The notes: a model not told the origin generated them from the sequence alone. 64,000 nucleotides of DNA from a virus (IMGVR_UViG_2862035965_000001), one strand, 5' to 3'; shown: positions 3,719-43,787, counted from the first letter of the stretch. Made by a program: numbers and translations.

Positions 3719-3741
3719 AAGCACAGCAGAGCTGTGCTCGG
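3719..3741 (+). promoter_or_regulatory. degenerate copy of the conserved 23-nt promoter-like motif (AAGCACAGCAGAGCTGTGCTCGG)
   Basis: Matches the consensus at 18 of 23 positions and is followed by a GTGTGG box. It sits about 118 nt upstream of the 3859 ORF. Confidence 0.35.
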
Positions 3742-3858
3742 ACGAACACCGGGTGTGGTGTTTTCTTGGCACCCTTCACGGGCGAACTACTGTGCGCTTG
3801 AGGCCCACTGCCAGCCGATCACCACATCATTCCTCTATATATAAGGACTCAAACAACT

Positions 3859-4350
3859 ATGACTATTCACTCTGCATCCACTGTGCAGAAACTCGATCTC
3901 GCACAGATGCGCGAGATCGCTGCTGCACTCACCGACTGCGACCTCACCCGTGCCAATCACGCAGAGGTTGCCGAAGACTGGCTCTTTGTCCGCGACACCG
4001 GTGCCTGCGCCAACATCACTGTCAACCCCTACAGCGATCTGTTCTATGCACTCGATGTTGCGAACCCCGCGCTTCATGAGCTGTTTGCCGGCTACGCTGC
4101 ACGCCTTGATGAGCTCGACCTCGTGCCACAGCGATTCGAATCCCATCAAGATTTTCTTGATTATGTCTGTGCTGACAATCCGTTCAGCTCCGACAAGCCA
4201 GACGGCATTATCATTCTGCTCGCCGATCACGTGCTTAAAGCAGATCCTGCGACAGGCAAACCAGCACTTGAATCAGAAACATTCCCCACTGTCGCAAACT
4301 ATTGCGCCACTCACTCCATCGCACCCTCAGACATTCTCATCAAGGATTAA
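3859..4350 (+). CDS. hypothetical acidic protein
   Basis: 163-aa ORF, first gene after an AT-rich promoter region. The segment PDGIIILLADHVLKADPATG weakly resembles the LPxG...HPxYG repeat family found further downstream. Confidence 0.55.
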   Translation: MTIHSASTVQKLDLAQMREIAAALTDCDLTRANHAEVAEDWLFVRDTGACANITVNPYSDLFYALDVANPALHELFAGYAARLDELDLVPQRFESHQDFLDYVCADNPFSSDKPDGIIILLADHVLKADPATGKPALESETFPTVANYCATHSIAPSDILIKD

Positions 4351-4356
4351 GTCACC

Positions 4357-4548
4357 ATGACGAAACACAGCCCTACTCATACAACCCCCACAGAGCACTC
4401 AGATCTCACCGATCAGCGCATTTTTCCGCTTGGTGCTACAGCACTAGAAGAATTCGACATGCTGCTTGATCAGCCAGTGGACACAGAAGAACTACAAGCT
4501 TTTCTCCACGCCCCCACCATCTTCGGTACTGAGATTGTGCTCAATTAA
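4357..4548 (+). CDS. hypothetical small protein
   Basis: 63-aa ORF tightly packed 7 nt after the previous gene. Confidence 0.45.
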   Translation: MTKHSPTHTTPTEHSDLTDQRIFPLGATALEEFDMLLDQPVDTEELQAFLHAPTIFGTEIVLN

Positions 4549-4587
4549 CTACTGCCACCTCACACGCAAACAAGAAAGGGCCACCCC

Positions 4588-4818
4588 ATGACCACTGTTC
4601 GAGTATCAACCCACACCGTGCACGAACACCGCTTCACTGTGCCAGTGAACTACGCCACCGGCGCCACCATTTCAGAAATCTATGTCGCCTGCGCCATGGC
4701 TGAAGACACCGCCAAAAGTCTTGGTCTTGACACCGCGACAGATGATTGGGCACATGTCACTGTCACTGATGATGCTGTTGTGTTCACCGTAGTCGAGAAT
4801 GTTATCGGGAATACGTAG
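4588..4818 (+). CDS. hypothetical small protein
   Basis: 76-aa ORF with an AAGAAAGG ribosome-binding site upstream. Confidence 0.45.
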   Translation: MTTVRVSTHTVHEHRFTVPVNYATGATISEIYVACAMAEDTAKSLGLDTATDDWAHVTVTDDAVVFTVVENVIGNT

Positions 4819-4973
4819 AATTTTGTGCCCCTTAACGACTCACTGCGACCAAACCGACCTTAATTAAGACACCTCTACAACTGTTAGCGGGGTCTTCCCT
4901 TATCTATTACACCGTCTGTAGCTACCCTTATACCGAATACCGATGCACGCCAGCCTAAGAATCGAGATCAACC

Positions 4974-5786
4974 ATGACATTGCCGTTAGCATCAATTTTG
5001 CAGGCCACTGGGATCGACCCCAACGATGCTCTAGCAATCCGTCATGTTTTCATCCCCCTCCATGAGGACACCAACTCCACTGGAATTACCCCATCGTCCA
5101 CAGACGCAGAGATCCTTACCTACACTTCCCACCAGTCAAGTGATTCGCGTAGGTTCCCACTGCATCCACCGCGCTTCTGGCTGGTATTTATCCGCGAGGG
5201 CGGGCGGCAAGCTCGCCTATGGAGAGTCGTAGAAAACCATGGTGAAACAAGCAATGACGGTGTACGGAGAATATTCCAGCTCACCGAAACTGACCTCTTA
5301 AGTGATCTTGCCGGCAGACTCGTTATTGGTTGGGATTCAGCCCGCACCTGGTGGGTAAAAGGTACCACTGTAGCTCGCTACCCTGTAGAAACAATTGCTG
5401 ATGCCGAGCCCATCGCCTTTCCGGGCTTCGATCAACTTATTCTAAGTTACCCTCAACTTCAGGCAGTGATACGTGAGCCAACTTTCGCCTCCTGGCGCAC
5501 AGCACTGAGTTCCGTTAAAGGTATCTATCTAATTACCGACACCCGTACCGGTCGCCACTACGTTGGCAAAGCCGAAGGCTCAGAAAACATCTATCAGCGG
5601 TGGACTAGCTACGCCACCACCGGCCATGGCGGAAATGCAAAGCTCAGACAGCTTAAACCCGACTCATTTCAGTTTTCCTTGCTGCGCGTCTTTGATCCAG
5701 CAACACCAACAAGTGTCATCAACGCTGCCGAAAAGCATTTCAAGCGTGCCCTCGACACCATTAAACACGGTCTTAACGCTAATTAA
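4974..5786 (+). CDS. GIY-YIG nuclease domain protein
   Basis: 270 aa. The C-terminal segment KGIYLITDTRTGRHYVGKAEGSENIYQRWTSY matches the GIY...YIG...R...Y pattern. The N-terminal ~170 aa are unassigned. Confidence 0.6.
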   Translation: MTLPLASILQATGIDPNDALAIRHVFIPLHEDTNSTGITPSSTDAEILTYTSHQSSDSRRFPLHPPRFWLVFIREGGRQARLWRVVENHGETSNDGVRRIFQLTETDLLSDLAGRLVIGWDSARTWWVKGTTVARYPVETIADAEPIAFPGFDQLILSYPQLQAVIREPTFASWRTALSSVKGIYLITDTRTGRHYVGKAEGSENIYQRWTSYATTGHGGNAKLRQLKPDSFQFSLLRVFDPATPTSVINAAEKHFKRALDTIKHGLNAN

Positions 5787-5862
5787 GAACCAAGACAGAC
5801 CCCTTAAACCCTGCTGATTGTACGCATGAGCAGGGTTTTTCTACGCACGAAAGACATTCCAT

Positions 5863-9454: not shown

Positions 9455-9477
9455 AACGACAGCACAGCTGCGTTCGG
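9455..9477 (+). promoter_or_regulatory. conserved 23-nt promoter-like motif, copy 1 (AACGACAGCACAGCTGCGTTCGG)
   Basis: Exact consensus with an A-rich upstream region, 50 nt upstream of the ATG at 9528. Confidence 0.6.
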
Positions 9478-9527
9478 AGAGATCCTTGAAGCACAGTCAA
9501 TGACAGTTCAGAGTCAAGGAGCACAAA

Positions 9528-10100
9528 ATGCAGCAGCAACTCACGCAGCACACACTTCCACAGCGCACACAGCCATGGCCTGAAGGTTCTTTTCATGTAG
9601 CGCTCACCGGGCATCGCCCCAAGTCGCTGCCTGGTGGCTACGATGACAATCATCCGTTTTATCACGCGCTCTATCAGCGCTTATACGCCATCATGGAGCG
9701 CGGTCTAGCGCATCACAGCCACTTCGTGCTGCACTCTGGCATGGCGCTCGGTGCAGACACAGTGTGGGCGTATGTCATCACAGCTTTGCAGCGTGCCTAT
9801 CCAGGGAGGTTCTCTTTTGTTGCTGAAGTGCCGCTGTTGACGCAGCCCTCCAAGTGGCAGGCAAAGGATCAACAGCAATGGGCACAGCTGGTGCAGCAGG
9901 CAGATCACGTCAATCTCTACGGCGAGGTTTATCATCCGAGCGTGCTCATGAAGCGCAACACAGGAATGATCAAGGCGTGTGATTTGGTGATTGCTGTCAT
10001 CAACAAGGATTCACACACAGGTGGCACAGCGCACGCTGTGAAAGAAGCAGAAAGCATGTCTAAGCAGGTCTTTAAGATTCATCCAGAGGATCTGGTTTAA
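9528..10100 (+). CDS. YpsA/SLOG (DUF1273)-like protein
   Basis: 190 aa. LTGHRPKSL, HSGMALGADTVWA and the C-terminal GGTAHAVKEAE...FKIHPEDL align with Bacillus YpsA (TGYKPFELG, ISGQLGVELWAAEAA, GTAEKRREQ...FITMDDL). Confidence 0.6.
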   Translation: MQQQLTQHTLPQRTQPWPEGSFHVALTGHRPKSLPGGYDDNHPFYHALYQRLYAIMERGLAHHSHFVLHSGMALGADTVWAYVITALQRAYPGRFSFVAEVPLLTQPSKWQAKDQQQWAQLVQQADHVNLYGEVYHPSVLMKRNTGMIKACDLVIAVINKDSHTGGTAHAVKEAESMSKQVFKIHPEDLV

Positions 10101-10111
10101 AGCTCTACACA

Positions 10112-10144
10112 CCCCAAGGGACGTTCCCTTGGGGTTTCTTTTTG
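10112..10144 (+). terminator. intrinsic terminator (CCCCAAGGGACGTTCCCTTGGGG plus T-run)
   Basis: Perfect GC-rich hairpin followed by TTTCTTTTT. Confidence 0.6.
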
Positions 10145-10166: not shown

Positions 10167-10189
10167 AACGACAGCACAGCTGCGTTCGG
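10167..10189 (+). promoter_or_regulatory. conserved 23-nt promoter-like motif, copy 2
   Basis: AACGACAGCACAGCTGCGTTCGG, directly upstream of the 10194/10245 gene. Confidence 0.6.
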
Positions 10190-10193
10190 GGAC

Positions 10194-11462
10194 ATGCCTG
10201 ATCAACTACTGACGCCCACGTCCACCCAAGGAGACTCACACACTATGTTCCCCACCAAAGATATGCTCGCGCTGTTTCAGCCCACTGACCCCGTACCAGC
10301 AGATCTTGTGCAATTTGCCCCAGGAAAACTCATGCGTACCGATGGGTTGCCTGTTGATGACACCCTCAACGAGATTTCCCAGATGTTCTACTCCACTGAT
10401 CCTGCCAGCGTCTCCGATCAATTCATGCGCAAGCAATTTCACGGCCTGTTTCACCGCACCGCGTCGGTCTCAGACCTCACTGAAGATCTCTATGAGCGCT
10501 TCGCGCACAACCCGAACTCTATGGCGCATTGGTTGCCTAAAGTGGTCGCAGCAAACAGTGCTGCGACACCCGCAGCCTTTCTCATCCCGGAAACCACCAT
10601 TTGGCGCCTACCTATTGAGCTAGCCCAGTACATCCGCATCCAATATCAGGACACCACGCCAGCCAGCCGTGCCATGTTCAACGACATCATCAGCACTGTC
10701 TTTGAGCTCAAGTCTGATACCACCTACTTCATCAAGACTGGCACGTTTTCCTGCAAGTTTGAATTCGCTAATGCCCGGTGCTCTGAGCCAGAAGAAATGG
10801 GTGAATACTTCCAGGTCGTCAACAACATCGCCATGATGCTTGGTGCCGGCGAGAGTGTTGATCTTGTTGTCCGCGAGTACATCGAGGACACAGAAGATAA
10901 CCCGACCATCTATCACGGTATGCCGCTGCGTACTGAATACCGCGCCTTTATCGACCTTGATCACTGCGATCCGACTACCGGTGAGTCTGAGCCACGTTTA
11001 CTGGGTATTACCCCGTATTGGCACCCGTCAGTGATGGAGAAGGCTCTTGCCTTGGCCTCAAGTGATGTTGGTGCTGGATTCGGCCACATCAACGATGATT
11101 ACCACACCTACCGTGCTCATAAAGACAACCTCATGAACAAGTTTCATGTGCACCGCGATGATGTCATTGCACGTATTACTGCACTACTTCCGACGCTTCG
11201 TGCACAGGGTCTGCAGGGTCAGTGGTCGGTAGACATCATGAAAAACGGTGAGGATTTCTACCTCATTGATATGGCGTTGATGTGCGAGTCGGCGCTTTCT
11301 GAGCTGCTCACTGTTACTGACGAGTACGCCACCGTCGAACCGAGCGTCATTAATGACTTCGCCAACCAGCTGGTCATTGACTATGACGAGCACAACATCA
11401 GCTTTGATCGAGACTATCCAACGGGTGTGTACAGCACCCGAACAGCAAGTGCTCTCAGCTAA
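10194..11462 (+). CDS. ATP-grasp-like protein (paralog of 17478-18716)
   Basis: 422 aa; the true start is probably the ATG at 10245 (MFPTKD). TEYRAFIDLD and DIMKNGEDFYLIDMALMCE resemble the ATP-grasp EYRxF...hh[DE]hN motifs of RimK-like ligases. Confidence 0.55.
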   Translation: MPDQLLTPTSTQGDSHTMFPTKDMLALFQPTDPVPADLVQFAPGKLMRTDGLPVDDTLNEISQMFYSTDPASVSDQFMRKQFHGLFHRTASVSDLTEDLYERFAHNPNSMAHWLPKVVAANSAATPAAFLIPETTIWRLPIELAQYIRIQYQDTTPASRAMFNDIISTVFELKSDTTYFIKTGTFSCKFEFANARCSEPEEMGEYFQVVNNIAMMLGAGESVDLVVREYIEDTEDNPTIYHGMPLRTEYRAFIDLDHCDPTTGESEPRLLGITPYWHPSVMEKALALASSDVGAGFGHINDDYHTYRAHKDNLMNKFHVHRDDVIARITALLPTLRAQGLQGQWSVDIMKNGEDFYLIDMALMCESALSELLTVTDEYATVEPSVINDFANQLVIDYDEHNISFDRDYPTGVYSTRTASALS

Positions 11463-11479
11463 AACACGCATCACCGAAA

Positions 11480-11511
11480 CCCCAAGGAAATTCCCTTGGG
11501 GTTTCTTTTTT
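11480..11511 (+). terminator. intrinsic terminator (CCCCAAGGAAATTCCCTTGGGG plus T-run)
   Basis: Near-identical hairpin to the one at 10112. Confidence 0.6.
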
Positions 11512-11573: not shown

Positions 11574-11596
11574 AACGACAGCAAAGCTGCGTTCGG
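11574..11596 (+). promoter_or_regulatory. conserved 23-nt promoter-like motif, copy 3 (AACGACAGCAAAGCTGCGTTCGG)
   Basis: One mismatch to the consensus, A-rich upstream, 54 nt before the 11650 ORF. Confidence 0.6.
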
Positions 11597-11649
11597 GAGA
11601 ACTCATGAACAAAGATCTGTCCATCTCAAGCTCTTAAAAGGAGATCATC

Positions 11650-11781
11650 ATGAACTGCCCAAATTGCTCTGAAGAAATGACTGTCGTTGATGTTGTTGGT
11701 CGTGGTGCTAGCCGAGGTCTGTTGCTTATTGACCCCACCACCCACATCTGCAGCGACTGCGGATACTCCGAAGTGTTCTAG
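11650..11781 (+). CDS. small zinc-ribbon protein (43 aa), not in the ORF track
   Basis: AAAAGGAG ribosome-binding site 7 nt before the ATG. The product is MNCPNCSEEMTVVDVVGRGASRGLLLIDPTTHICSDCGYSEVF, with CxxC...CxxC. Confidence 0.45.
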   Translation: MNCPNCSEEMTVVDVVGRGASRGLLLIDPTTHICSDCGYSEVF

Positions 11782-14754: not shown

Positions 14755-14809
14755 CAACCCTTGTACTGCACCTTTATGCACTACAGGGGTTGTTTTTTAT
14801 GTGCGCACA
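14755..14809 (+). terminator. imperfect hairpin plus T-run
   Basis: AACCCTTGTACTGCA...TGCACTACAGGGGTT followed by GTTTTTT. Confidence 0.45.
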
Positions 14810-14827: not shown

Positions 14828-14850
14828 AACGACAGCACAGCTGCGTTCGG
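14828..14850 (+). promoter_or_regulatory. conserved 23-nt promoter-like motif, copy 4
   Basis: Exact consensus, followed at +6 by GTGTGA, 72 nt upstream of the ATG at 14922. Confidence 0.6.
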
Positions 14851-14921
14851 ATACAGGTGTGACAAACTCTTGCCACACCTCGCACCCCAACCGTGCACAA
14901 TCCCAGAAAGAGGTCATACCC

Positions 14922-15560
14922 ATGTCCCAGAAAATCAACTTTGGTATCGGCGAAGAATGCTCCACATGGACACACCACTCTGATGATCAAGCACGTAACG
15001 GCATCGTCAACAAACTGCCACTCACCCAACCCATGATTGATGCACTTACCCCTGAGGTGCTTACTGATGCGCGCACCCGCATTCTTTCCCGCCTTGCCTC
15101 TAGTCGCTACCAATACAGTGCTGCCAACGAGTACACCCAGCCCGATCTACTCCTGGGTCGCTCGGGTCAATTCGACAATCAAGTCATCACCGCGCTAGTC
15201 AAAGACAAAGACGGCAAACAGAGGCACTGCTACGCCAAAGGCTTCGATATTGCCTATGCCATTGTTATGTTCACCAACTACGAGATCCAACTCCCCTACG
15301 CCGATGTCCACAACATTGATCCAGCACTAATCCGCGAACCCCACTGGGACGGCGAAGAGATGCCTGAGATGCTCACCATAGATGACCTCGTAGACACTGA
15401 AAAGAAATCTATCGCCGGCATCCTCACTGTTGAACACTATGTGGCCTACAACGATGAGGGCAACATACGACAAGACCCCACACTTGATGAGGATCTTTTC
15501 TCTGTTCTCTATAGCTCACTGATCGCGGCTGAAAAGATGCGCGAAAAAATCGAAGGATAA
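14922..15560 (+). CDS. hypothetical protein
   Basis: ATG start with an AGAAAGAGG ribosome-binding site. The longer annotated ORF from 14790 would run through the promoter motif. Confidence 0.55.
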   Translation: MSQKINFGIGEECSTWTHHSDDQARNGIVNKLPLTQPMIDALTPEVLTDARTRILSRLASSRYQYSAANEYTQPDLLLGRSGQFDNQVITALVKDKDGKQRHCYAKGFDIAYAIVMFTNYEIQLPYADVHNIDPALIREPHWDGEEMPEMLTIDDLVDTEKKSIAGILTVEHYVAYNDEGNIRQDPTLDEDLFSVLYSSLIAAEKMREKIEG

Positions 15561-15565
15561 CAACG

Positions 15566-16051
15566 ATGAAAAAGACTATTGTTTCTGCCCTTGCTGTACT
15601 TGTGGCACTCACTGCAACCGCGTGCGGACCTATGCCTGACACTACCGCTGATTCCGATACTGCTGCTCATGCGCCAGCCACCAACACTGTGGCACAAGCC
15701 ATTGAAGACAGCAGCAACGGCGCCGATACCGATGCACCTCCGAAACGCCATGTTCAAGACATTGAGACCTTCACGCCGCAACAGTTTGGCACCGCGTTTG
15801 ATAAATACTCTTCTCAAGATCCACTTCAGCTAAGGTATGTCCTGCTCCCTGATGGGCAATATGTACTCTGCATCCGCGACTGGGATAAAAAGGGCTACGC
15901 CGGAGGGCTTGCCATGTCCTGCGATTGGGACAACAAAGTCCCTGCAGACGGCATTATCCCCATGCCGACAAATAATGCAGGCACCCCAGACTCCGCAAAA
16001 ACTACAAATGCCACCGAAGCAACAGAGCCGACTGACGCGCCTGCGCAATAA
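15566..16051 (+). CDS. putative lipoprotein
   Basis: 161 aa. The N-terminus MKKTIVSALAVLVALTATAC(G) has a lipobox-like TATAC and a low-complexity D/T/A-rich linker. Confidence 0.55.
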   Translation: MKKTIVSALAVLVALTATACGPMPDTTADSDTAAHAPATNTVAQAIEDSSNGADTDAPPKRHVQDIETFTPQQFGTAFDKYSSQDPLQLRYVLLPDGQYVLCIRDWDKKGYAGGLAMSCDWDNKVPADGIIPMPTNNAGTPDSAKTTNATEATEPTDAPAQ

Positions 16052-16076
16052 ATCCGCACAGCAAAACCACCACATA

Positions 16077-16106
16077 ACCCCTTAAGTACCCGCTTAAGGG
16101 GTTTTT
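16077..16106 (+). terminator. intrinsic terminator (CCCCTTAAGTACCCGCTTAAGGGG plus TTTTT)
   Basis: Perfect hairpin followed by a T-run. Confidence 0.55.
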
Positions 16107-16163
16107 CCCCTGTATCTCCCTGCACCGCAACTCGTACACGACCGTTAAGAAAGGTTTTCCGCC

Positions 16164-16634
16164 ATGAACGCTCAGCAGCAACTGACCTCGACCACCGACT
16201 ACGCGACACAACTCGCTGGCACCTTTGTACAGAAACTCCACAGCGAAGCAGACCTAACGCAGACCTTCTTTAAAACAACGTCTGACGATTGGGTGCGCAC
16301 CTCTTATCCGGGCCTCAAAGACCTCGATGTGCTCAAGCGCTACACCAATGAAGAAATGGCCGACATAGCAACAACTGTGCTCTATGCGCCTGATGATCTC
16401 TCAAACAAACACAATATCTTCAAAACCTACGCAGTGCACGAATCTGTACTTGACGAGCTTGCCATCGGATCTATTATCTGCGACGACAGCAACTACCCTG
16501 TGCCGCTGATGAAATTGCCCCACGCGGATAACCCTTTTTACGCCAAGTGGTCCATGTTCGGGATTAATGGCGACTTCGACAGTGAAGATATTCTCGGCGT
16601 CAGGATCAAAACCAGAATTCTTCACAGCGCCTAG
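16164..16634 (+). CDS. hypothetical protein
   Basis: 156 aa with an AAGAAAGG ribosome-binding site. Confidence 0.55.
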   Translation: MNAQQQLTSTTDYATQLAGTFVQKLHSEADLTQTFFKTTSDDWVRTSYPGLKDLDVLKRYTNEEMADIATTVLYAPDDLSNKHNIFKTYAVHESVLDELAIGSIICDDSNYPVPLMKLPHADNPFYAKWSMFGINGDFDSEDILGVRIKTRILHSA

Positions 16635-16653
16635 ATTCCACACCACTATCCAA

Positions 16654-16700
16654 GCCCTCAGACAAAACGCACCAGGTTTTGTCTGAGGGCTTTCTTTTTT
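16654..16700 (+). terminator. intrinsic terminator (GCCCTCAGACAAAAC...GTTTTGTCTGAGGGC plus T-run)
   Basis: 15-bp perfect stem followed by TTTCTTTTTT. Confidence 0.6.
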
Positions 16701-16743: not shown

Positions 16744-16766
16744 AACGACAGCACAGCTGCGTTCGG
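16744..16766 (+). promoter_or_regulatory. conserved 23-nt promoter-like motif, copy 5
   Basis: Exact consensus, followed at +6 by ATGTGA, 78 nt upstream of the ATG at 16844. Confidence 0.6.
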
Positions 16767-16843
16767 GAGCATATGTGAATCCTCGCTGTGCCTGCACTCG
16801 CAGGCATACAGCTTACTCAACAACACAGAAAGTACCCCTCACC

Positions 16844-17475: not shown

Positions 17476-17477
17476 CC

Positions 17478-30693: not shown

Positions 30694-30700
30694 CCCACCC

Positions 30701-30925
30701 ATGTCTACACCTAAAAAGGCACAAGAACTCAGCGGCGTCAATATTGGCGATGTTGTTAGTTTCTCTCACGAGGGCGCCGATATTCGCGGCATCCTGCGAC
30801 AAATTCATCATGACGGTAACAGCACGTACTTGAGCCTCATCGACATCGAATATGACGCTAAGAACAATTATGACTTCCCCGAATACGACTGCGACCCCAA
30901 CGACATCATCAACCTAGAAAGATAA
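30701..30925 (+). CDS. hypothetical small protein (paralog pair with 30932)
   Basis: ATG at 30701. MSTPKKAQELSGVNIGD... Confidence 0.45.
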   Translation: MSTPKKAQELSGVNIGDVVSFSHEGADIRGILRQIHHDGNSTYLSLIDIEYDAKNNYDFPEYDCDPNDIINLER

Positions 30926-30931
30926 ACACCC

Positions 30932-31174
30932 ATGTCTGCACTCAAGAAAGCAGCAGAACTTAATGCGACCAATATTGGACAAGGAATTCGATTCATCAAC
31001 AGTCGTGGAATCATCCCCTATGAGGTCAATATGGAACTGCGACAGATCAACCACAACGGCGCCGAGACTGTGCTCGATGGGTACATCATCGACGGTGACA
31101 ACCTTGTCACCGGTACTGAACTTGAACAATTTCTTATTTCCCCCAGTGCCCAGGTCATCATCTACGACATCTAA
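30932..31174 (+). CDS. hypothetical small protein (paralog of 30701)
   Basis: MSALKKAAELNATNIGQG..., colinear with the previous protein. Confidence 0.45.
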   Translation: MSALKKAAELNATNIGQGIRFINSRGIIPYEVNMELRQINHNGAETVLDGYIIDGDNLVTGTELEQFLISPSAQVIIYDI

Positions 31175-31318
31175 TTCTTAACCTGTAACGCCCTTCGCGC
31201 TGGGATAACAGGACATGTCATACCTGTCCCGGCGTGCTTTAAAAATATCTCAGCACATATATACTATATGTGCACCATATATACAGTTTTTAATCAAGAA
31301 AGCAGGTAGCACTCCCCC

Positions 31319-32695
31319 ATGGGACTAGTCCTTATTATTGGCGGCGTGATCGTCGTCGGTATTATTCTCGCCATCGTCGCAGGCATTATTTCACTGTTTT
31401 CCCGTACCTGGATCAAGGTCGCAGCAGCCGATGAAGCACTCATTGTCTCTGCGAAGGGGAAGGGTGAGTCGCAGGTCATTGTCCACGGCAAAGCCGTGGT
31501 GATGCCGATTACCCAGACTCACCAGAAGATTTCTCTTCGTTCCCGACAAGTGAACATGCAGGTCACCGCGCAAAGCGATGACAATGTAACCCTTAATGTT
31601 GAAGCGGTTGCACTGGTGAAGATTGGCTCTGAGCACGAATTTATCCGCCGTGCAGCACAGCGTTTCGCATCCAGCGACAAGGAAATCGCACAGTTTACTC
31701 AGGACCAGCTCGAAGGTGTCCTGCGCGGTGTCGTCGCACAGCAGACGGTGACCTCACTCATGCGTGAACGCAAGAAGTTCTCCGAGCAGATCGCAGAGAC
31801 TGTCATTCCAGAACTAGAAAAACAGGGTCTGAACCTTGACTCTTTCCAGATTCGTGGCATTACTGATTCTGTAGGCTACATCAATTCTCTTGGAGCACCA
31901 GAAATTCAGGCCAAGCGCCAAGCTGCAGAAATCGCTGAGTCTGAGGCAGCACGCGCCATTGCAAAATCTCGTATTGCTAACCAAGAAGCAGATCTTATCG
32001 AGCAAACACAACTTGATGAGAACAAGGCTGCATCTGATGCCCGCATCGGTGAGGCACGTGCCCAGGCTATGCAGGCAGAACGCCTTGCTGATGAAAAAGC
32101 CCGCCAGGAAGTTCTCGCACAGCAGGCAGAAAATAAACAGATTGAGCTGGAAGCACAGGTCAACAAGGTCGCCGATGCAGAACGATACCGCCGCAAGCAG
32201 CAGGTAGAGGCTGATACCTTCGAGCAGACTCGTCGTGCCCAGGCGAAGGCAGAAATTGCCGAAGCTGAAGCACAAGCTCTTAAAACCCACGCTGAAGCAG
32301 AGGCCGAGGCTGTGCGTCTTAAAGGTCAAGCAGAAGCTGAGGCAATTAAGGCCAAGGCAGAAGCCTACCGCGAGAACCAGGAGGCACTACTGGCACAGCA
32401 GGCCATGGAAATTCTGCCAGATCTCATGGCACAGTTTGCCCACGGCTACGCCAACATTGGTTCCATGACCGTGCTTGCTGGCGGTGGCGCCACCTCTGGT
32501 GATGCTGCAGCTATTGGTGGCAATCTCGCCGGCGAACAGGCTGTTGCATTACAAGGTGTTTTCGCCACCGTGAAGCAGACCACCGGCATTGATCTTGCTG
32601 AACTGATTCAAGGTCGTGCACTCGGTCAGGCGCAAGGTGAAGCACAAGGCAACGCTATTGCAGCAGCCCTTGAGCAGGCACCTCGCAATGAGTAG
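31319..32695 (+). CDS. flotillin-like SPFH (band-7) domain protein
   Basis: 458 aa with an N-terminal TM helix, an SPFH-domain core and a long E/A/Q-rich coiled-coil repeat region (AEAEAQALKTHAEAEAEAVRLKGQAEAEAIKAKAEA), typical of FloT/YuaG-type flotillins. Confidence 0.8.
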   Translation: MGLVLIIGGVIVVGIILAIVAGIISLFSRTWIKVAAADEALIVSAKGKGESQVIVHGKAVVMPITQTHQKISLRSRQVNMQVTAQSDDNVTLNVEAVALVKIGSEHEFIRRAAQRFASSDKEIAQFTQDQLEGVLRGVVAQQTVTSLMRERKKFSEQIAETVIPELEKQGLNLDSFQIRGITDSVGYINSLGAPEIQAKRQAAEIAESEAARAIAKSRIANQEADLIEQTQLDENKAASDARIGEARAQAMQAERLADEKARQEVLAQQAENKQIELEAQVNKVADAERYRRKQQVEADTFEQTRRAQAKAEIAEAEAQALKTHAEAEAEAVRLKGQAEAEAIKAKAEAYRENQEALLAQQAMEILPDLMAQFAHGYANIGSMTVLAGGGATSGDAAAIGGNLAGEQAVALQGVFATVKQTTGIDLAELIQGRALGQAQGEAQGNAIAAALEQAPRNE

Positions 32696-32715
32696 TAATT
32701 AACACATCCCACTTA

Positions 32716-32760
32716 AACCCCCTATAAGCAGCTGACACTAGTTGTTTATAGGGGGTTTTT
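32716..32760 (+). terminator. intrinsic terminator (AACCCCCTATAA...TTATAGGGGGTT plus TTTTT)
   Basis: Hairpin plus T-run after the flotillin gene. Confidence 0.55.
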
Positions 32761-32785
32761 CATCTGCACAGATACAGTTAGTCGC

Positions 32786-33244
32786 ATGTACGCGCATTAC
32801 ATTTTAGACACCATGCTTAATCGCTCTATCAAGCAGATTGAGCAACGCCTGGATCGACAAGACACCACCATCAGCGACGCCATCGCCGATAGCGTGCACG
32901 ACGAGCTGCATGAATACGCAACGGCTAATGCACCCTGTGACAGCAACAAACAAGCACTCCTTGGTCATGTCGAGCTTGATATAGCGGATCTACAGATCAT
33001 TATTGACAGCATTCACCCTGCACAGGGCGCAGATATGGTGGTGTGCGGCACAGTCTCAGCATCGACAACGACACTGTTTTATACCGTTGATGAGGTCTTT
33101 ACCCAAGGCTGGCGCAGTCACTTTGGGTCAGTGCTTGTCGAAGGCAGCTTCGCATTGTTGATCGACCCAGACAGCTGTGACGTGCACAATCTTGATCTTG
33201 TCGGTCAACAGCACGTGCACTGGGTGCCAGCTCGACAGCCGTAA
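32786..33244 (+). CDS. hypothetical protein
   Basis: 152-aa ORF with an ATG start. Confidence 0.5.
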   Translation: MYAHYILDTMLNRSIKQIEQRLDRQDTTISDAIADSVHDELHEYATANAPCDSNKQALLGHVELDIADLQIIIDSIHPAQGADMVVCGTVSASTTTLFYTVDEVFTQGWRSHFGSVLVEGSFALLIDPDSCDVHNLDLVGQQHVHWVPARQP

Positions 33245-33402
33245 AGAAGCCGTAGGTCTTTTTCGCTCGGAGTGTAAACACTATCCCGAGCGAACATGGG
33301 CGGAAGCCCATGTCGGGGTGTTGTGCGAATCGCTGTGTGAGGACTACCGCAGCGTGAAAAAACAACTACCAAACAACACTTATAAAGAAAGACCTTTTGC
33401 TC

Positions 33403-35142: not shown

Positions 35143-35157
35143 ACCAACCCACATAAG

Positions 35158-35204
35158 AAACCCCGTAGCAGTGCTCAGGCGCTGTTACGGGGTTTCTTTT
35201 TTTA
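35158..35204 (+). terminator. intrinsic terminator (AAACCCCGTAGCAG...CTGTTACGGGGTTT plus T-run)
   Basis: Hairpin followed by TTTCTTTTTTT. Confidence 0.6.
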
Positions 35205-35419
35205 ATCCACATCGTCTAATTCAACAAAAAGCATAAGAAGCCCAGCGAACAATGTCTTTTCTTTAGGTTCATTGGGCAGTGCAGCGGGGGCTGCACTCGG
35301 GGTCAGGTGTGAATGCATGGGTCGGCCACAGTGCCATGACCTGCAGCTTCGTGCGCAACCATGTGCGCGAAGAAAACACACTACATAAAAAAACTCACGC
35401 TCATTAAAGGACTAGACCC

Positions 35420-36328
35420 ATGTTCACTCGTACTCTTTTCACCACCTTCATTGCCACTGTTATCGCTATGGTCAGCTTTAGCGCTCACGCATCCGCCATC
35501 TCTGTTGATCACACTCACACCGCAACAAAGCTGTCCAATACCGTATTTGTCGATGCTAATGATCGTTCTTATTGCTCAGGAACCCTTATCTCGAAGCAGC
35601 ATGTACTTACTGCACGCCACTGTTTTGCTGATGATCCGGCCACCGCTGTGACCATCGGGGACGTCATTGACCAGGCTAATTCCCGTGCTGTTATTCACAC
35701 TGTTGTGCATCCAGACGCCGATATTGCGGTACTTACTCTTGATGCACCTGTTCTTGACGCTGCGCCAGCCGCCATTAATCTTGGCTACCAGGGTCACGGC
35801 ACTGCCCTCCATGGTTCCGGCTTTGCCGGCAACTATGGCGAGGGCTCTATCGCACAAGATTTTGCTGGTGATAAGTTCGACAACCGCTTCTATGACGCCT
35901 ACGGCAACACCCTCGTTATCGCAGCACAGCGCGAAATCGTTCACGGTGATTCTGGCTCTGGTCTTAAAGATGACAACGGCGCTGTCGTGGGTGTTCTTGA
36001 CTACCGTTTCCCCGGAATTTTCGGTGAAACAGGGGGTGCCACCATGCACGATTACGGCCAGTGGGTCGTAGACAACACAGGTGGTCAGGCACAAGTCGTA
36101 GACAATCCACAGGGTGCACCAGCAGATGCAGAACCTATGACCGATCGGTACAACGATCTACCAGCACTGATTGCTGAAGGCTTCCAGACACAGACCCAGG
36201 TAGCCACCGAGCAGGTTGAAGCAGCTCACGCTGAGTTCACCGCACAGGTCGATCAGGTTATTGCTGATGCACAGACTCAATTCCAGACCCAGCTCGATGC
36301 AGGACTCGCTGCAGCTCTCAGCTCATAA
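35420..36328 (+). CDS. secreted trypsin-like (S1 family) serine protease
   Basis: Signal peptide, then LTARHCF (His), DIAVLTLD (Asp) and GDSGSG (Ser). Confidence 0.7.
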   Translation: MFTRTLFTTFIATVIAMVSFSAHASAISVDHTHTATKLSNTVFVDANDRSYCSGTLISKQHVLTARHCFADDPATAVTIGDVIDQANSRAVIHTVVHPDADIAVLTLDAPVLDAAPAAINLGYQGHGTALHGSGFAGNYGEGSIAQDFAGDKFDNRFYDAYGNTLVIAAQREIVHGDSGSGLKDDNGAVVGVLDYRFPGIFGETGGATMHDYGQWVVDNTGGQAQVVDNPQGAPADAEPMTDRYNDLPALIAEGFQTQTQVATEQVEAAHAEFTAQVDQVIADAQTQFQTQLDAGLAAALSS

Positions 36329-36454
36329 TGCCACCTAACCAACTCATCTGATTCACCCAACCCCTACCCCTCTGAACAGCTCTTATAGCTGTGCAGTGGG
36401 GTTTTATTCACGCTCGATCACAATTTTCCTAAAGGATTCACAGGTATAACCACC

Positions 36455-37474
36455 ATGAACGCATCCCGATTTATCTCTCGCTCAGCACTGATGTCACTTC
36501 TCGCACTTGTATCTGCATGTGGCTTCATTGCGCAGGCCAGCCCTGCTCACGCAGTATCTAACACTACATTCCTCAAAACCACAGCCTCATACTGCAGCGC
36601 AACACTGATTTCCGAGCAGCACGTCCTTACTGCCCGCCACTGCCTTAATAGTGGCCCAGCTACATCCGTGTCTTTTGGCGACCAGATTGATCACAACCGA
36701 CGACACGCCGTTGTCCACACTGTTGTTCACCCCGATGCCGATCTTGCTGTACTCACCCTTGATGGGCCAGTCACCTATGTCCAGCCGGCAGCGATCAACA
36801 CCGCCAAACAATTTGTTGGCGCTCCGGTAAACGTCACCGGTTTTGCTGGAAACTACAAGCAAGGTCAATGGGCTCACCAGGCGCACGGCGCCGTGACTGA
36901 TCATCAGTGGGATTCCCGCTATGGTTTTTCCATGAATTCGTTGTTTAATGATCGAGTCATTCCCGGTGACTCCGGCTCAGGCATCAAAGACGCCAACGGC
37001 AACATTGTTGGTGTGAGCGATTACACTCACAAGGGATTCGAATTCCGAAGCGGTGGTGTCACCATGCACACCTATGGTCAGTGGGTTGTCGATGCGACCG
37101 GTGGGTCAGCCCAGGTCGTACACAACAACTATGGTCTCGGTGTAGATCTGAGTAATATCACCACCAGCTCCGGGTCAAGCATGTCACCCGCCGCACCTAT
37201 TGATACCAGTGACGTTGTTACCACCATTGATGTTGTTGATACAGCATCAACCAATACGGACGCACCTGGTTTCACCGCATTCGACAACGACACTGCTGTG
37301 CCTATGGCACCAACCCCGACCCCAACTCTGGTTGTCCCTAGTTCTAGCGAGATCTCCACTGCCGTGTCAGAAATATCTGCATTAGTACAGCAGGCTCACA
37401 CCGATGCAGCTCAGGCTGTTCATGAAGCGGAAGCTGAATTCCACAACCAGCTTGCTGCGGTCTTCGCTCAGTAG
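36455..37474 (+). CDS. secreted trypsin-like (S1 family) serine protease, tandem paralog
   Basis: Signal peptide, then LTARHCL, DLAVLTLD and GDSGSG. It has a C-terminal Ser/Thr/Pro-rich extension. Confidence 0.7.
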   Translation: MNASRFISRSALMSLLALVSACGFIAQASPAHAVSNTTFLKTTASYCSATLISEQHVLTARHCLNSGPATSVSFGDQIDHNRRHAVVHTVVHPDADLAVLTLDGPVTYVQPAAINTAKQFVGAPVNVTGFAGNYKQGQWAHQAHGAVTDHQWDSRYGFSMNSLFNDRVIPGDSGSGIKDANGNIVGVSDYTHKGFEFRSGGVTMHTYGQWVVDATGGSAQVVHNNYGLGVDLSNITTSSGSSMSPAAPIDTSDVVTTIDVVDTASTNTDAPGFTAFDNDTAVPMAPTPTPTLVVPSSSEISTAVSEISALVQQAHTDAAQAVHEAEAEFHNQLAAVFAQ

Positions 37475-38389: not shown

Positions 38390-39001
38390 ATGTTTGGCAC
38401 TAGTTTTAACGAACAAATAACTAACCCAAGAAGTCAACGAGTTTCTTATTTGCGTGTTTCTAGCACTGATCAGAATCTGGCGCGACAACGTGAAGCTGTT
38501 AACCATTCGGGTCATATTGATCGTGAGTTCACTGATGAACTTTCCGGTGGCGCCAAATCACACAGGCCCGGTTTAGAAGACTGCATTAATTATCTTCGCG
38601 AAGATGATGTTCTTGTGGTCGCATCTATTGACAGACTTGCACGCTCTCTTGTTGATTTACGTGTCATCATTGATCGCATCACAGACAAAGGCGCGTCGGT
38701 CATTTTTCTCAAAGAGAATTTGAATTTCGCCGCAGGCCGCGATGATCCCCGAGCAAACCTCATGCTCGGTATTTTGGGCAGCTTCGCAGAATTTGAACGC
38801 TCCATTATTCGCGAGCGCCAAGCCGAAGGTATTGCACTGGCGAAAAAGGCGGGCAAATACTCAGGTCGCCCAAAAGCCCTCAATATGGAACAAATACAAG
38901 AGGCGAAAGATATGATTTCTCAAGGTGAAACAAAATCCTCTGTTGCCAAGCATTTTGGTATCAACCGATCAACCTTATACGACTATCTCAAAAAATCCTG
39001 A
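38390..39001 (+). CDS. serine recombinase (resolvase/invertase family)
   Basis: 203 aa. N-terminal YLRVSSTDQNLARQRE, with the catalytic Ser in context. It has a C-terminal HTH (SSVAKHFGINRSTLYDYLKK). The small size fits a resolvase or invertase rather than a large serine integrase. Confidence 0.85.
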   Translation: MFGTSFNEQITNPRSQRVSYLRVSSTDQNLARQREAVNHSGHIDREFTDELSGGAKSHRPGLEDCINYLREDDVLVVASIDRLARSLVDLRVIIDRITDKGASVIFLKENLNFAAGRDDPRANLMLGILGSFAEFERSIIRERQAEGIALAKKAGKYSGRPKALNMEQIQEAKDMISQGETKSSVAKHFGINRSTLYDYLKKS

Positions 39002-39083: not shown

Positions 39084-39572
39084 GTGAAGCCAGGTGCTGC
39101 TGACATTATTTTGTCCTCGACCAATAAGTGGGTCGGCGTTGCCCATAAACAAGCACCTGCATCAGAGATCCCCTATGGCACGCTTGACTCTATCGCTATG
39201 TCCAAGCCTTTCGCCTGGACGCAAAAAATCAAGATGTGCTCATGCAGCAAGTGGCATCTCGCCATTAAATGCACAGCCGAGGATCTACGCCTCCACCAAC
39301 AACCTGTGAACGGACGTTTTGGTGTTCGCGACGTGATCTTTGCTGACCTTAATACCCCACTGTTTCCTAACAGCCATGATCTTATTGCCAATCTTGACGA
39401 CCGAGAAGAACTTGGCGAGGACGCACGGTTAAGTTTTAACAAACGCGAAGATGCAGCCGCATTTATGGCTGCCAATAAAGCAAAACGCCTCAACTTTGAT
39501 AAGCGTGGCCGTAGAGCCAGTCACATCAAACCGCACGAACGCAAAGCATTCAAGAAGCACCGCAGAAAATAA
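39084..39572 (+). CDS. hypothetical protein with basic C-terminal tail
   Basis: GTG start without a clear ribosome-binding site; an alternative ATG lies at 39198. The C-terminus reads KRGRRASHIKPHERKAFKKHRRK. Confidence 0.4.
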   Translation: MKPGAADIILSSTNKWVGVAHKQAPASEIPYGTLDSIAMSKPFAWTQKIKMCSCSKWHLAIKCTAEDLRLHQQPVNGRFGVRDVIFADLNTPLFPNSHDLIANLDDREELGEDARLSFNKREDAAAFMAANKAKRLNFDKRGRRASHIKPHERKAFKKHRRK

Positions 39573-39593
39573 CGACAGCGAAGCTGCGTTCGG
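39571..39593 (+). promoter_or_regulatory. conserved 23-nt promoter-like motif, copy 9 (AACGACAGCGAAGCTGCGTTCGG)
   Basis: 68 nt upstream of the ATG at 39661. Confidence 0.6.
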
Positions 39594-39660
39594 TTATGTT
39601 CTCGAACTGCTGTAGTGCACGCACTACAGCCAACTACCACCGTAGAAGCGAGAACATATT

Positions 39661-40143
39661 ATGTCTGCCGTTGATCTTTACCAAGCACGCATTCCTTTTC
39701 AACGCGATGGCGTGCGCTGTGATCATACGATGATCACTCGCATTCAAGCCGGCCTGCATCTTGGTGGCTGCCGCGCAGCAGGACTTCTGCCTGTACCAGC
39801 ACATATCGACCATATCGTCCGCCTAACAACCACTGATTTCTATGATCTTGACTCTGCACCGCAACTGCTCAGCAACACTGTGCTTGATGTGTTGGACACC
39901 ACCACCCAAGACTTGAGCGCGTTGTGGCCTGTTGCAGAGCACATTGCCACAACCGTTCCTGAATCAGAGGACGTGCTTATCCACTGCCAGATGGGTATCA
40001 ACCGATCAGCGGCGCTGATGGCACGGGTGTTGATGCTGCGTAACAGTTGCACAGCCGATGAAGCGGTAGCGTTGCTGCGTGCTCGACGCTCACCATTTGT
40101 GCTGTTCAATGAGCATTTCGTGGAACAGCTACAAAAGCTGTAG
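39661..40143 (+). CDS. dual-specificity / Cys-based protein phosphatase (CX5R)
   Basis: VLIHCQMGINRSAALMARV matches the HCxxGxxRS P-loop of DUSP/PTP enzymes. Confidence 0.7.
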   Translation: MSAVDLYQARIPFQRDGVRCDHTMITRIQAGLHLGGCRAAGLLPVPAHIDHIVRLTTTDFYDLDSAPQLLSNTVLDVLDTTTQDLSALWPVAEHIATTVPESEDVLIHCQMGINRSAALMARVLMLRNSCTADEAVALLRARRSPFVLFNEHFVEQLQKL

Positions 40144-41644: not shown

Positions 41645-41671
41645 TCACATCAACATTATTTATCACGTAAA

Positions 41672-41721
41672 TACCCTTTAAAAATCTTTTACAAGATTTT
41701 TAAAGGGTATTTCTTTTATTA
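41672..41721 (+). terminator. intrinsic terminator (TACCCTTTAAAAATCTT-TTAC-AAGATTTTTAAAGGGTA plus T-run)
   Basis: 17-bp perfect stem. Homologous to the 43621 terminator. Confidence 0.6.
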
Positions 41722-41814: not shown

Positions 41815-41837
41815 AACGACAGCGAAGCTGCGTTCGG
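41815..41837 (+). promoter_or_regulatory. conserved 23-nt promoter-like motif, copy 10
   Basis: AACGACAGCGAAGCTGCGTTCGG after an A-rich run, 57 nt upstream of the ATG at 41894. Confidence 0.6.
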
Positions 41838-41893
41838 GTGAATCGGCGATAGTCACACACCACTCTTCTTGAGAGAATCCCGAGGTCACCCCT

Positions 41894-42625
41894 ATGTCAC
41901 CGAACTTCCAAGCTCGCGGCACCTTCACTGCACCCACTGTTGCTTTGTCTATGCGCCAGGTCGCACACATCCGTGAAGAGATCAACAAGTCGCCACTCGC
42001 CGCTTCCGTTTTCATCGCACCCACCACCAAACAAATGGTTGTCCGCGATCTGGAATCACTGTTCCAGCAGCTCTACCACACAGATCTACCTGAACCATCC
42101 ATCAAAGACAGTGGTCTTATCAGTGCTGTCGGCTCTGGTGCCGGCAATACCAATAATCCAGCGCTCGCCCTAGAATCCCAGATGGCCTACCACCAGGTGC
42201 TCGCCATGCACCACACCGATGTTGCTACCTGGCACAAGGTGGTGACCAAAAACATCACCGAATCCGCTGCCGCACAAGATGCAGCCTTTGAGCACAGTGC
42301 AAAATACGATGCTGTCCATGATGCTGCGCATCTTATGGGCATCACTATTGATGATGGCAATGTCGGTAGCATCGCTATTGCATTTGATGCTGCGCGTGCA
42401 GATGGCAAGCATGATTGGTGCGTTGCCGGCATGAACCGCTACATGGAGGTCACTGAGGCGTTGGATAATGCGCGAGCTGTCACTAAAAATACTGCTGCAC
42501 TCAATAAAACTGCTCTACCAGACGTGCAGCCGGCGCCCGTTCTGCATTCAGCACAGTTCATGAACAAGTCCGCACACAATCATGGGGTTAATACTGCTGA
42601 AAAAGATCAACCAACCCTGTTTTAA
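41894..42625 (+). CDS. hypothetical protein
   Basis: 243-aa ORF. Confidence 0.5.
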   Translation: MSPNFQARGTFTAPTVALSMRQVAHIREEINKSPLAASVFIAPTTKQMVVRDLESLFQQLYHTDLPEPSIKDSGLISAVGSGAGNTNNPALALESQMAYHQVLAMHHTDVATWHKVVTKNITESAAAQDAAFEHSAKYDAVHDAAHLMGITIDDGNVGSIAIAFDAARADGKHDWCVAGMNRYMEVTEALDNARAVTKNTAALNKTALPDVQPAPVLHSAQFMNKSAHNHGVNTAEKDQPTLF

Positions 42626-42797
42626 AAGACTGTCCATTTAACAACCACATCGTTACCCCCCCGAACAGTCTTTTAAAGGCTATTCAGGGGTAATTTTTTC
42701 GCCACACCCGCAATATCTACCATAAATGGTGATCTATTATACATAATGGAATTACCAAAGCTTCGCATCACTTTTCCACAGCCTGAAAGAACATACT

Positions 42798-43538
42798 ATG
42801 TCCGCAGCTTTACCTCACACCGCAGCAGATCCCGTACACACCACCCCAGCGAAACCGCTGCTCGATCATGTCTTAGATTCACTGGGACGCAGCATCATCA
42901 GTGGTGAAATGGAAGCCGGTAGCACATTCAAACTGCAAGACATCGGTGAAAAATTCGGTATCTCCCGCACCGTCGCCAGAGAAGCTATGCGTGCCTTAGA
43001 GCAACTTGGGTTGGTGGCCTCATCGAGACGAATTGGTATTACAGTGCTCTCTCACGAGCACTGGGCTGTCTTTGACAAAGCCATTATTCGCTGGCGCCTC
43101 GAAGATGAGCGTCAACGTGAACAGCAACTGCAGTCACTCACCGAACTTCGTATTGCCATTGAACCAATTGCTGCACGCAGTGTTGCTCTTCATGCATCAA
43201 GCGCAGAGATTGCTATCATCAGTGATCTTGCTGCACGAATGCGTAACCTCGGTGAAGCTGGCCGTGGCGCATCACAAGAATTCCTAGACGCAGATGTGAA
43301 ATTTCATGAGCTTATTTTGCAGTATTGCCATAATGAGATGTTCGCTGCCATGGCACCGCCCATAAAGGCTGTACTAGTCGGACGCACCAAACTTGGCCTT
43401 CAACCCGATCGACCTGCCGAAGAGGTCTTGGACAATCATGATGCTCTCGCACACGCACTAAGTGTTCGTAATGCAGACCTCGCCGAAAAAGCATCCAGGA
43501 ACATTCTGAGTGAGGTGCGCGACGCACTGAGCTCGTAA
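42798..43538 (+). CDS. GntR/FadR-family transcriptional regulator
   Basis: N-terminal winged HTH (KLQDIGEKFGISRTVAREAMRALEQLGLV) and a C-terminal all-helical FCD-like domain. Confidence 0.75.
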   Translation: MSAALPHTAADPVHTTPAKPLLDHVLDSLGRSIISGEMEAGSTFKLQDIGEKFGISRTVAREAMRALEQLGLVASSRRIGITVLSHEHWAVFDKAIIRWRLEDERQREQQLQSLTELRIAIEPIAARSVALHASSAEIAIISDLAARMRNLGEAGRGASQEFLDADVKFHELILQYCHNEMFAAMAPPIKAVLVGRTKLGLQPDRPAEEVLDNHDALAHALSVRNADLAEKASRNILSEVRDALSS

Positions 43539-43620
43539 CTGCCTCTTACTCGCTCAATAACTAACACATAATTGCCACTAAACGAGCCACTACACAATTA
43601 CACCGCTCATCGTTACTTAA

Positions 43621-43669
43621 TTACCCTTTAATAGTCTTTTACAAGGCTGTTAAAGGGTAATTTTTTATT
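43621..43669 (+). terminator. intrinsic terminator (TTACCCTTTAATAGTCTTTTACAAGGCTGTTAAAGGGTAA plus T-run)
   Basis: Homologous to the terminator at 41672. Confidence 0.6.
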
Positions 43670-43764
43670 CGTTTGTTTTGGGCCCATTAAGTGTCAATTA
43701 CATGTCGAGTAAGTGACACTTACAGCGCAATTGAATAGTCACTTAAACGCACGCTAAAAAAACC

Positions 43765-43787
43765 AATGACAGCGAAGCTGCATTCGG
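43765..43787 (+). promoter_or_regulatory. conserved promoter-like motif, copy 11 (AATGACAGCGAAGCTGCATTCGG)
   Basis: Two mismatches to the consensus, A-rich upstream, 66 nt upstream of the ATG at 43853. Confidence 0.55.

Follow-up and report, generated by a model that had tools for sequence, protein, structure and literature searches.

The viral DNA stretch IMGVR_UViG_2862035965_000001, which comprises 64,000 nucleotides and is called the window hereafter, raises the question of what a short, strongly conserved motif does that recurs between its genes. The original prediction, made from the sequence, took this motif for a directional promoter heading one set of co-regulated genes. The motif features a small hairpin whose pairing is conserved while its stem sequence changes, and it is linked to the gene downstream of it. 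With about even confidence, the copies are read here as structure-dependent hairpin promoters used by a phage-encoded RNA polymerase (RNAP). The motif is probably undescribed so far: its sequence was not found in a search of open-access papers. The coordinates of a small RNA catalogue gave no lead, and GTDB representative genomes and IMG/VR, searched for exact matches to the motif, returned chance singletons only.

The 23-mer AACGACAGCRMAGCTGCGTTCGG has nine matches in the window at up to three mismatches, all on the plus strand, where dinucleotide shuffles expect 0.01. The looser core CAGCNNNGCTGNNTTCGG finds 12 plus-strand copies at positions of the original prediction, and its three minus-strand matches are the palindromic core of plus-strand copies, read in reverse. 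A hairpin-aware scan adds two copies, 33294–33328 and 63284–63317, which share the architecture and have unrelated stem sequences. All 13 predicted sites (3719, 9455, 10167, 11574, 14828, 16744, 18781, 20427, 23829, ~35280, 39571, 41815, and 43765) are present; the predicted total of approximately 13 has to be raised to 15. These 15 copies all lie on the plus strand, as had been claimed, and all are intergenic in a window that is approximately 77% coding. An equal occurrence in coding DNA or on the minus strand is thus not seen. A covariance model with eight copies as input was run on both strands of the window and of seven related loci and yielded 26 matches at E<0.05, each of them on the gene-sense strand; in eight more loci, every additional match at this threshold is also on the plus strand. 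Loci compared with the window carry the labels L014, L015, L016, L017 (C. glutamicum BX927147), L020, L022, L024, L025, and L042.

The hairpin consists of an 8-bp stem, at times with a 1-nt bulge, and a purine-rich loop of 3–4 nt. In the consensus, the arms AACG[A]CAGC and GCTGCGTT pair to give the stem, from which one A bulges out, and enclose a loop of 3 nt. Both arms change together: AATG..CATT at 18781 and 43765, ACAG..CTGT at 20428, and AGCA..TGCT at 3720. The 17 distinct stems evaluated are all exactly 8 bp long, with 135 of 136 pairs being Watson–Crick and with two to four pair types at every pair position. Shuffling of the arms in 10,000 trials gives 60 pairs on average and 99 at most. 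DNA folding of both strands results in energies of -5.7 to -10.3 kcal/mol. The relative L016, with approximately 33% protein identity, keeps the architecture with five other stems, an AGGG loop, and CGG-N8-GTGA behind the hairpin; L022 and L024 feature further stems and other first tail bases, and retain the 12-nt spacer and TGA(A/C). Since the stem sequence varies while the pairing stays, it is the structure and not the sequence that is under selection. The earlier view of the motif as a linear sequence, not a full palindrome, is therefore replaced by that of a hairpin with a freely covarying outer stem. An intrinsic terminator is not found in the motif itself: the stem is followed by CGG and mixed sequence with no U-run, and the real terminators are separate and lie upstream. 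An antisense terminator, i.e., the hairpin with a T-run on the minus strand, was rejected as well, as the A-tract is absent in L016 and L024.

Each copy is built of stem, loop, stem, CGG, 8 nt, and nTGA, and it is this 3' tail (CGG-N8-nTGA) that gives the motif its direction. The truly conserved part of the tail is a GA at a fixed distance of 11–12 nt after CGG, which occurs in 14 of 15 copies. The second box RTGTGA, predicted for about half of the copies, does exist but is confined to five of them (GTGA occurs in seven). A start–stop mini-open reading frame (ATG/GTG-TGA) was rejected because no more than five of the 15 copies show it. Nine copies have their conserved G 40–76 nt ahead of the start codon, an ATG with a Shine–Dalgarno sequence, and in six this distance is 107–283 nt; the predicted 50–80 nt is thus close for the former and fails for the latter. 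Strong intrinsic terminators are found 27–102 nt upstream of seven copies (those with a terminator in Table 1) and a terminator-like hairpin upstream of copy 63284, so that the "usual" position just behind a terminator describes these copies but not the others. Monocistronic units, likewise, follow some copies, but not 14828, 16744, and 23829, which head several genes each. Two copies are accompanied by additional structures: at 18781, the GTGA box lies inside a terminator-like hairpin (18808–18826), which is followed by GCTTGTTT, and at 23829, a 16-bp hairpin (23878–23914) lies downstream, inside the long leader. Both may represent attenuators or structures of the leader.

Table 1. Copies of the hairpin motif and further annotated features of the window (nt positions)
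Feature	Coordinates	Strand	Stem, loop, and tail	Context
Motif copy	3720–3753	+	divergent: AGCACAGC-AGA-GCTGTGCT CGG N8 CGGG; perfect 8-bp stem; sole copy without GA box	divergent intergenic region; 107 nt before ORF (open reading frame) at 3859
Motif copy	9455–9489	+	consensus AACG[A]CAGC-ACA-GCTGCGTT CGG N8 TTGA	40 nt before YpsA/SLOG gene (9528–10100)
Motif copy	10167–10201	+	consensus	31 nt after terminator 10111–10135; 45 nt before 405-aa gene (10245–11462)
Motif copy	11574–11608	+	consensus, AAA loop	68 nt after terminator 11476–11505; ~43 nt before 43-aa Zn-ribbon gene (11650–11781)
Motif copy	14828–14862	+	consensus	directly after terminator (hairpin and T-run, ~14763–14800); heads three-gene unit (14922–16634)
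Motif copy	16744–16778	+	consensus	51 nt after terminator 16652–16692; three-gene unit (16844–18716), last gene ATP-grasp
Motif copy	18781–18814	+	no bulge, compensatory changes: AATGCAGC-ACA-GCTGCATT	
Motif copy	20428–20461	+	outer stem fully compensated: ACAGCAGC-ACA-GCTGCTGT	
Motif copy	23829–23863	+	shifted bulge: AAC[C]ACAGC-AAA-GCTGTGTT	~13 genes (23997–33244) until next copy
Motif copy	33294–33328	+	unrelated stem: ACATGGGC-GGAA-GCCCATGT CGG N8 GCGA	76 nt before gene at 33403; conserved in C. glutamicum CGP3 (CGG at L017:17997)
Motif copy	35278–35312	+	divergent: AGTGCAGC-GGGG-GCTGCACT CGG N8 GTGA	79 nt after terminator 35155–35198; two trypsin-like protease genes downstream
Motif copy	39571–39605	+	consensus, GAA loop	overlaps stop codon of upstream ORF; 57 nt before dual-specificity phosphatase gene (39661–40143)
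Motif copy	41815–41849	+	consensus, GAA loop	102 nt after terminator 41669–41712; 46 nt before gene at 41894
Motif copy	43765–43799	+	compensatory pair: AATG[A]CAGC-GAA-GCTGCATT	102 nt after terminator 43619–43662; 55 nt before gene at 43853
Motif copy	63284–63317	+	unrelated stem: GTTGCGTG-AAA-CACGCAAC CGG N8 GTGA	replication-gene region; hairpin and T-rich run 63226–63272 upstream; conserved in L014
Tail-fibre-like proteins	431–3546	-		two collagen-repeat/DUF4988 proteins
SPFH/flotillin protein	31319–32695			
Trypsin-like proteases	35420–37474			two paralogues
Serine resolvase	38390–39001			
GntR/FCD regulator	42798–43538			
Fic/DOC protein	46990–47892	-		

Comparison of orthologous copies in two or three relatives shows similarity that sets in 10–20 nt ahead of the hairpin and extends over leader and gene, whereas the upstream gene and its terminator are divergent or replaced. 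The motif hence belongs to the downstream gene, and it coincides with mosaic junctions between the relatives. The original claim of a directional gene-start signal that marks one co-regulated set gains circumstantial support from strand, intergenic position, and this linkage. In L016, terminator and motif follow each other in the same order as in the window. Tandem copies occur in front of genes for single-stranded DNA-binding protein (SSB): three at 560–960 of L042, a JGI metagenome contig of the same family, between a terminator and the SSB gene, and two at 7050–7430 of L024, before another SSB gene. L020 (9160–11290) and L025 (9215–11225) contain the YpsA/SLOG gene and a 405–428-aa partner, each gene with its own hairpin motif; this two-gene module stands isolated among chromosomal genes and transposases, outside a prophage context, and one of the L020 copies is decaying, with an A·C mismatch and the tail CAG. 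A gene for an IS605-type OrfB/TnpB (Cas12f-like) is inserted at 4053–5204 of L024, a few kilobases from motif copies and apparently unrelated to the hairpins.

The window has no close match in phage or plasmid collections as judged by megablast. It encodes a RecJ-like nuclease, a D5-type primase-helicase, a family B DNA polymerase, and many orphan genes. One of its proteins is 88% identical to a protein of the cg1902–cg1929 region of C. glutamicum ATCC 13032, which we take to lie inside prophage CGP3, and the motif occurs at least five times in that region. In addition, the relative L014 contains an Lsr2-type gene like cgpS. Judged by this protein match, the shared motif, and the Lsr2-type gene, the window is a CGP3-like prophage of Corynebacterium. 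A tandem array of approximately eight copies of CACCTGTTG is found at 11000–11075 of L017 (BX927147 ~1801945–1802020), where the cg1914 motif copy of CGP3 has this array upstream instead of the terminator. The family B DNA polymerase is a divergent protein of 1263 aa (58868–62659) with no Pfam match. An assignment of this 1263–1321-aa reading frame beside the primase as an RNAP was rejected, since the alignment of 31 homologues features ExoI–III and the motifs DxxSYYP, KLxLNSxxG, and TDG. Its homologues are found on 120–260-kb contigs of Gordonia, Rhodococcus, Arthrobacter, Plantibacter, and Cryobacterium, which suggests that very large prophages or plasmids of one family are widespread in actinobacteria. 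Between the Fic-domain gene and the replication genes lies a 1.3-kb low-GC stretch (47900–49200) with few ORF calls, all of them very short (≤78 aa), and with approximately 25 copies of a ~15-bp unit, TTAAnnGTC(G/A)ATTAA, in both orientations. This array looks like an iteron, origin, or partition/regulator-binding array. The plus strand, which is the coding strand, is C-rich and A-rich throughout, with a GC skew of -0.04 to -0.25 and no switch at the repeat array or the replication genes.

Whether the hairpin acts as DNA or as RNA can be judged by its wobble pairs. The 17 stems contain no G·T in 136 pairs, versus 13 in 194 pairs (6.7%) in twelve intrinsic terminators of the window, which act as RNA; the chance of finding none at the terminator rate is ~8e-5, which is optimistic because the copies are related. 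Where an otherwise intact copy departs from Watson–Crick pairing, the coding strand shows A·C—corresponding to G·T wobble on the template strand—and such pairs stem from four independent events (the L015/L017 orthologue of 18781; L020 9919; L024 7050; L022 4417). The single coding-strand G·T belongs to a CGP3 copy in decay, where a C·C mismatch is present as well. The lack of G·T relative to the terminators points to a DNA-level structure; by these pair counts, a DNA hairpin, possibly of the template strand, is favoured over a sense-RNA hairpin, with the four-versus-one strand bias being only a hint. An RNA-level element, by comparison, would be transcribed through read-through or from an unseen upstream promoter and would serve in the mRNA leader as the site of an antiterminator, a processing nuclease, or a stability or translation factor. 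A position in the 5' leader, with a single-stranded GUGA-like box at a constant spacing, would suit an RNA-binding protein; purine-rich loops such as GAA, GGAA, and GGGA are common in RNA; and some copies, e.g., 39571, have no terminator upstream. However, besides the missing G·U pairs, sense-strand A·C pairs are not tolerable in an RNA stem, the terminators ahead of seven copies and the terminator-like hairpin at the eighth leave little space for a promoter, the upstream sequence is unconserved between orthologues, and Rfam 15 yields no match at gathering thresholds in the whole window. We consider such an element unlikely.

A DNA hairpin could also act apart from transcription, either as a priming site of the D5-type primase-helicase or as a recombination signal for cassette shuffling, and would then be intergenic because coding sequence cannot hold it. 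The DNA type of the covariation is compatible with this, as are the spacing of ~1–3 kb between copies over much of the region, the element's own primase-helicase, family B polymerase, and RecJ together with SSB in relatives, and the presence of the motif at mosaic junctions. Against it stand the tight coupling to the next gene start in 9 of 15 copies and the linkage downstream, not upstream; the tandem copies before one highly expressed gene, that of SSB; and the orientation, which is equal on both sides of the putative origin-like array at 47.9–49.2 kb, where the GC skew does not switch. The window holds neither a Y1/HUH transposase nor an integron integrase, and readings as integron attC, REP (repetitive extragenic palindrome), or CRISPR-like sequences were rejected because of the absence of IntI and Y1 transposase in the window (Pfam), the downstream-gene linkage, and the single orientation. 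Such a role is quite unlikely. The nine near-identical copies of a 23-bp sequence with the palindromic core CAGCnnnGCTG, in turn, recall a conventional duplex site, namely an operator or activator site of a dimeric phage regulator that silences (in a stoperator-like manner) or activates cassettes, or a promoter of a phage sigma factor working with host RNAP. Stoperators of mycobacteriophage L5 are reportedly also intergenic and of single orientation, and the GntR/FCD regulator encoded in the window would be at hand. A sequence-reading dimer, however, cannot account for stems that are wholly different from copy to copy and from relative to relative and yet retain their pairing and a length of 8 bp, and no sigma factor is encoded in the window; we regard a duplex site as very unlikely. 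Each of the alternatives is thus weakened by specific results.

That the motif does not fit host promoters of the sigma type can be maintained. Sigma-70-like sites occur at or below chance in consensus scans. No -35/-10 geometry with conserved sequence and 16–18 nt spacing is found: the AAC...CGTT spacer measures 12–13 nt, as opposed to 16–17 nt in extracytoplasmic function (ECF) promoters, and both elements vary yet stay complementary. A host sigma-70 or ECF promoter was therefore rejected, as no register inspected by eye, including TGAAC as an ECF -35 element, gave a consistent partner element. For uninduced C. glutamicum, the map of Pfeifer-Sancar et al. 2013 (PMC3890552) contains on the plus strand of the region only the transcription start sites (TSS) 1802782, 1808413, and 1811964, all of which have a sigma-A -10 box, and none at ~1802059, ~1805035, and ~1805524, the positions predicted 3' of three CGP3 copies. 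The genes cg1914 and cg1918 and their neighbours are classed as monocistronic and have no TSS (PMC3890552). In the lysogen without induction, the motif is hence inactive as a host promoter; this fits a promoter dependent on a phage factor but is no proof of one.

In the favoured reading as hairpin promoters, the copies would delimit gene cassettes on their 5' side, within the accessory region of a CGP3-like prophage. The parts of each copy would be a short A-rich lead, the inverted repeat, the 12-nt spacer that in this lineage starts with CGG, and the conserved TGA(A/C). By analogy with the virion-RNAP promoters of phage N4, the inverted repeat may extrude, or be captured, as a DNA hairpin with an 8-bp stem and a 3–4-nt loop. 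A phage transcription machine would recognise the shape of the hairpin, its loop-closing pairs, the 3' tail, and a few fixed bases, but not the stem sequence. We infer that RNA synthesis would begin within the TGA box, at its invariant G or A, 13–15 nt from the stem, and would run rightwards into the gene. The upstream terminators may insulate each cassette, as in the promoter early stem-loops (PeSLs) of T4-type phages. Phage SSB may assist the polymerase; SSB is the host factor that activates the hairpin promoters of N4.

The most likely reader would be a polymerase of the NCgl1702 type, encoded outside the window. NCgl1702 (Cgl1702) of C. glutamicum is a protein of 2169 aa with the two-barrel catalytic core of multisubunit RNAPs; it is thought to be of phage or mobile-element origin, and its function is uncharacterised (PMC2919709, PMC5449584, PMC7824862). 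The published operon cg1992–cg1995 spans approximately 8.7 kb and offers room for a 6.5-kb gene. We take NCgl1702 to be cg1995, beside cglIM, within CGP3. The literature on YonO gives no promoter for comparison. The more specific proposal remains tentative: that the hairpins are the promoters of an NCgl1702-type giant single-chain two-barrel RNAP in CGP3-like actinobacterial prophages, a second and independently evolved class of hairpin promoters whose polymerase would be unrelated to that of N4 and would use them throughout the genome, aided by phage SSB—itself expressed from tandem copies—in exposing the hairpin. An element-encoded sigma factor, RNAP, or activator had been suggested originally, and a polymerase is a realistic reader; the window itself, however, contains no recognised sigma factor, RNAP, specificity factor, or obvious activator (Pfam for ~70 ORFs, PHROGs for 10, PDB sequences for 5), which counts against the promoter reading. 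Further points on this side are that a TSS is mapped at none of the copies; that several genes behind terminators, e.g., those at 24749, 28467, and 31319, have no motif copy; that the template-strand hint of four events versus one is not significant; and that the placement of NCgl1702 in CGP3 as cg1995 relies on an indirect fit of operon coordinates. The comparison with N4 adds two more: the N4 start lies 5 nt from the stem (A4 ruler), and the conserved GA lies ~14 nt away here; the template strand carries the purine loop of N4, 5'-GRA-3', and the coding strand that of the motif, together with the A-tract.

We know of no DNA-hairpin promoters apart from those of N4-like phages. If the proposal is true, a second case would come from a prophage that is unrelated to them and resides in a Gram-positive model organism, and structure-based promoter recognition would be recurring. 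To our knowledge, NCgl1702-like RNAPs were noticed in 2003–2010 and have had no function or promoter assigned since. A candidate promoter with a defined start region would open these polymerases to direct tests in vitro as well as in C. glutamicum, whose CGP3 is inducible and deletable. CGP3 also matters in an industrial strain. Moreover, a 35-nt orthogonal promoter with a dedicated polymerase could serve as an expression tool in Actinobacteria, and the position of the motif at cassette junctions may explain the shuffling of accessory regions in these very large prophages.

The motif shares individual features with several known systems. Like the PeSLs of T4-type phages, it combines terminators and promoter-like motifs between small accessory ORFs in hypervariable regions, setting up independent units and marking shuffling junctions (PMC2839356, PMC4122927); the layout of terminator and then motif is found in 7 of 15 copies, with a terminator-like hairpin before an eighth, and mosaic junctions are present. 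In a PeSL, however, an ordinary sigma-70 early promoter is combined with a stem-loop that acts as the terminator, whereas the conserved part is a covarying hairpin without -35/-10 elements here. T7-like phage promoters are similar in being ~23 bp long, almost invariant, on one strand, and before gene blocks, with a dedicated polymerase implied; they are read as duplex sequence and have no hairpin covariation, and no single-subunit RNAP gene is present in the window. Non-canonical multisubunit RNAPs of the AR9/phiKZ type belong to the two-barrel class without sigma factor, and the nvRNAP of AR9 reads the single-stranded template strand (PMC5449584); its promoter, unlike the motif, is a short linear AACA-N6-TW that needs uracil and has no hairpin. 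Stoperators, REP/RAYT, and attC sites also occur in many intergenic copies, stoperators and attC in a single orientation, and the hairpins of attC and REP likewise have bulges and conserve structure over sequence. Stoperators, though, are 13-bp asymmetric duplex sites; attC sites measure at least 57 nt, belong to the upstream cassette, and need IntI, in contrast to the downstream linkage of the motif; and REPs occur in both orientations at 3' ends together with RAYT, an enzyme not found in the window, where the motif keeps one orientation.

In hairpin structure, the motif resembles the early promoters read by the virion RNAP of N4 (Schitoviridae), in which a short inverted repeat ahead of the start forms a DNA hairpin whose loop measures 3 nt (PMC4496689). 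These promoters depend on the hairpin, and the variable bases of the stem need only pair (PMC4496689); a short stem, a small loop, and free bases that pair are equally found here, with 8 bp, 3–4 nt, and 135 of 136 pairs. Additional likenesses are some conserved stem bases, an A-rich tract beside the hairpin, an implied phage polymerase, and the involvement of SSB in N4 (PMC4496689). On the other hand, N4 stems have 5–7 bp and those of the motif always 8 bp, and N4 carries three copies at one genome end, as opposed to at least 15 over approximately 60 kb. The reader in N4 is a T7-like single-subunit RNAP, and the candidate here is a two-barrel enzyme; a giant N4-like virion RNAP gene was not found in the 64-kb window by Pfam, PHROG, and PDB searches. 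With these differences in loop strand, spacer length, copy number, and probable polymerase class, the motif is not filed in the N4 family.

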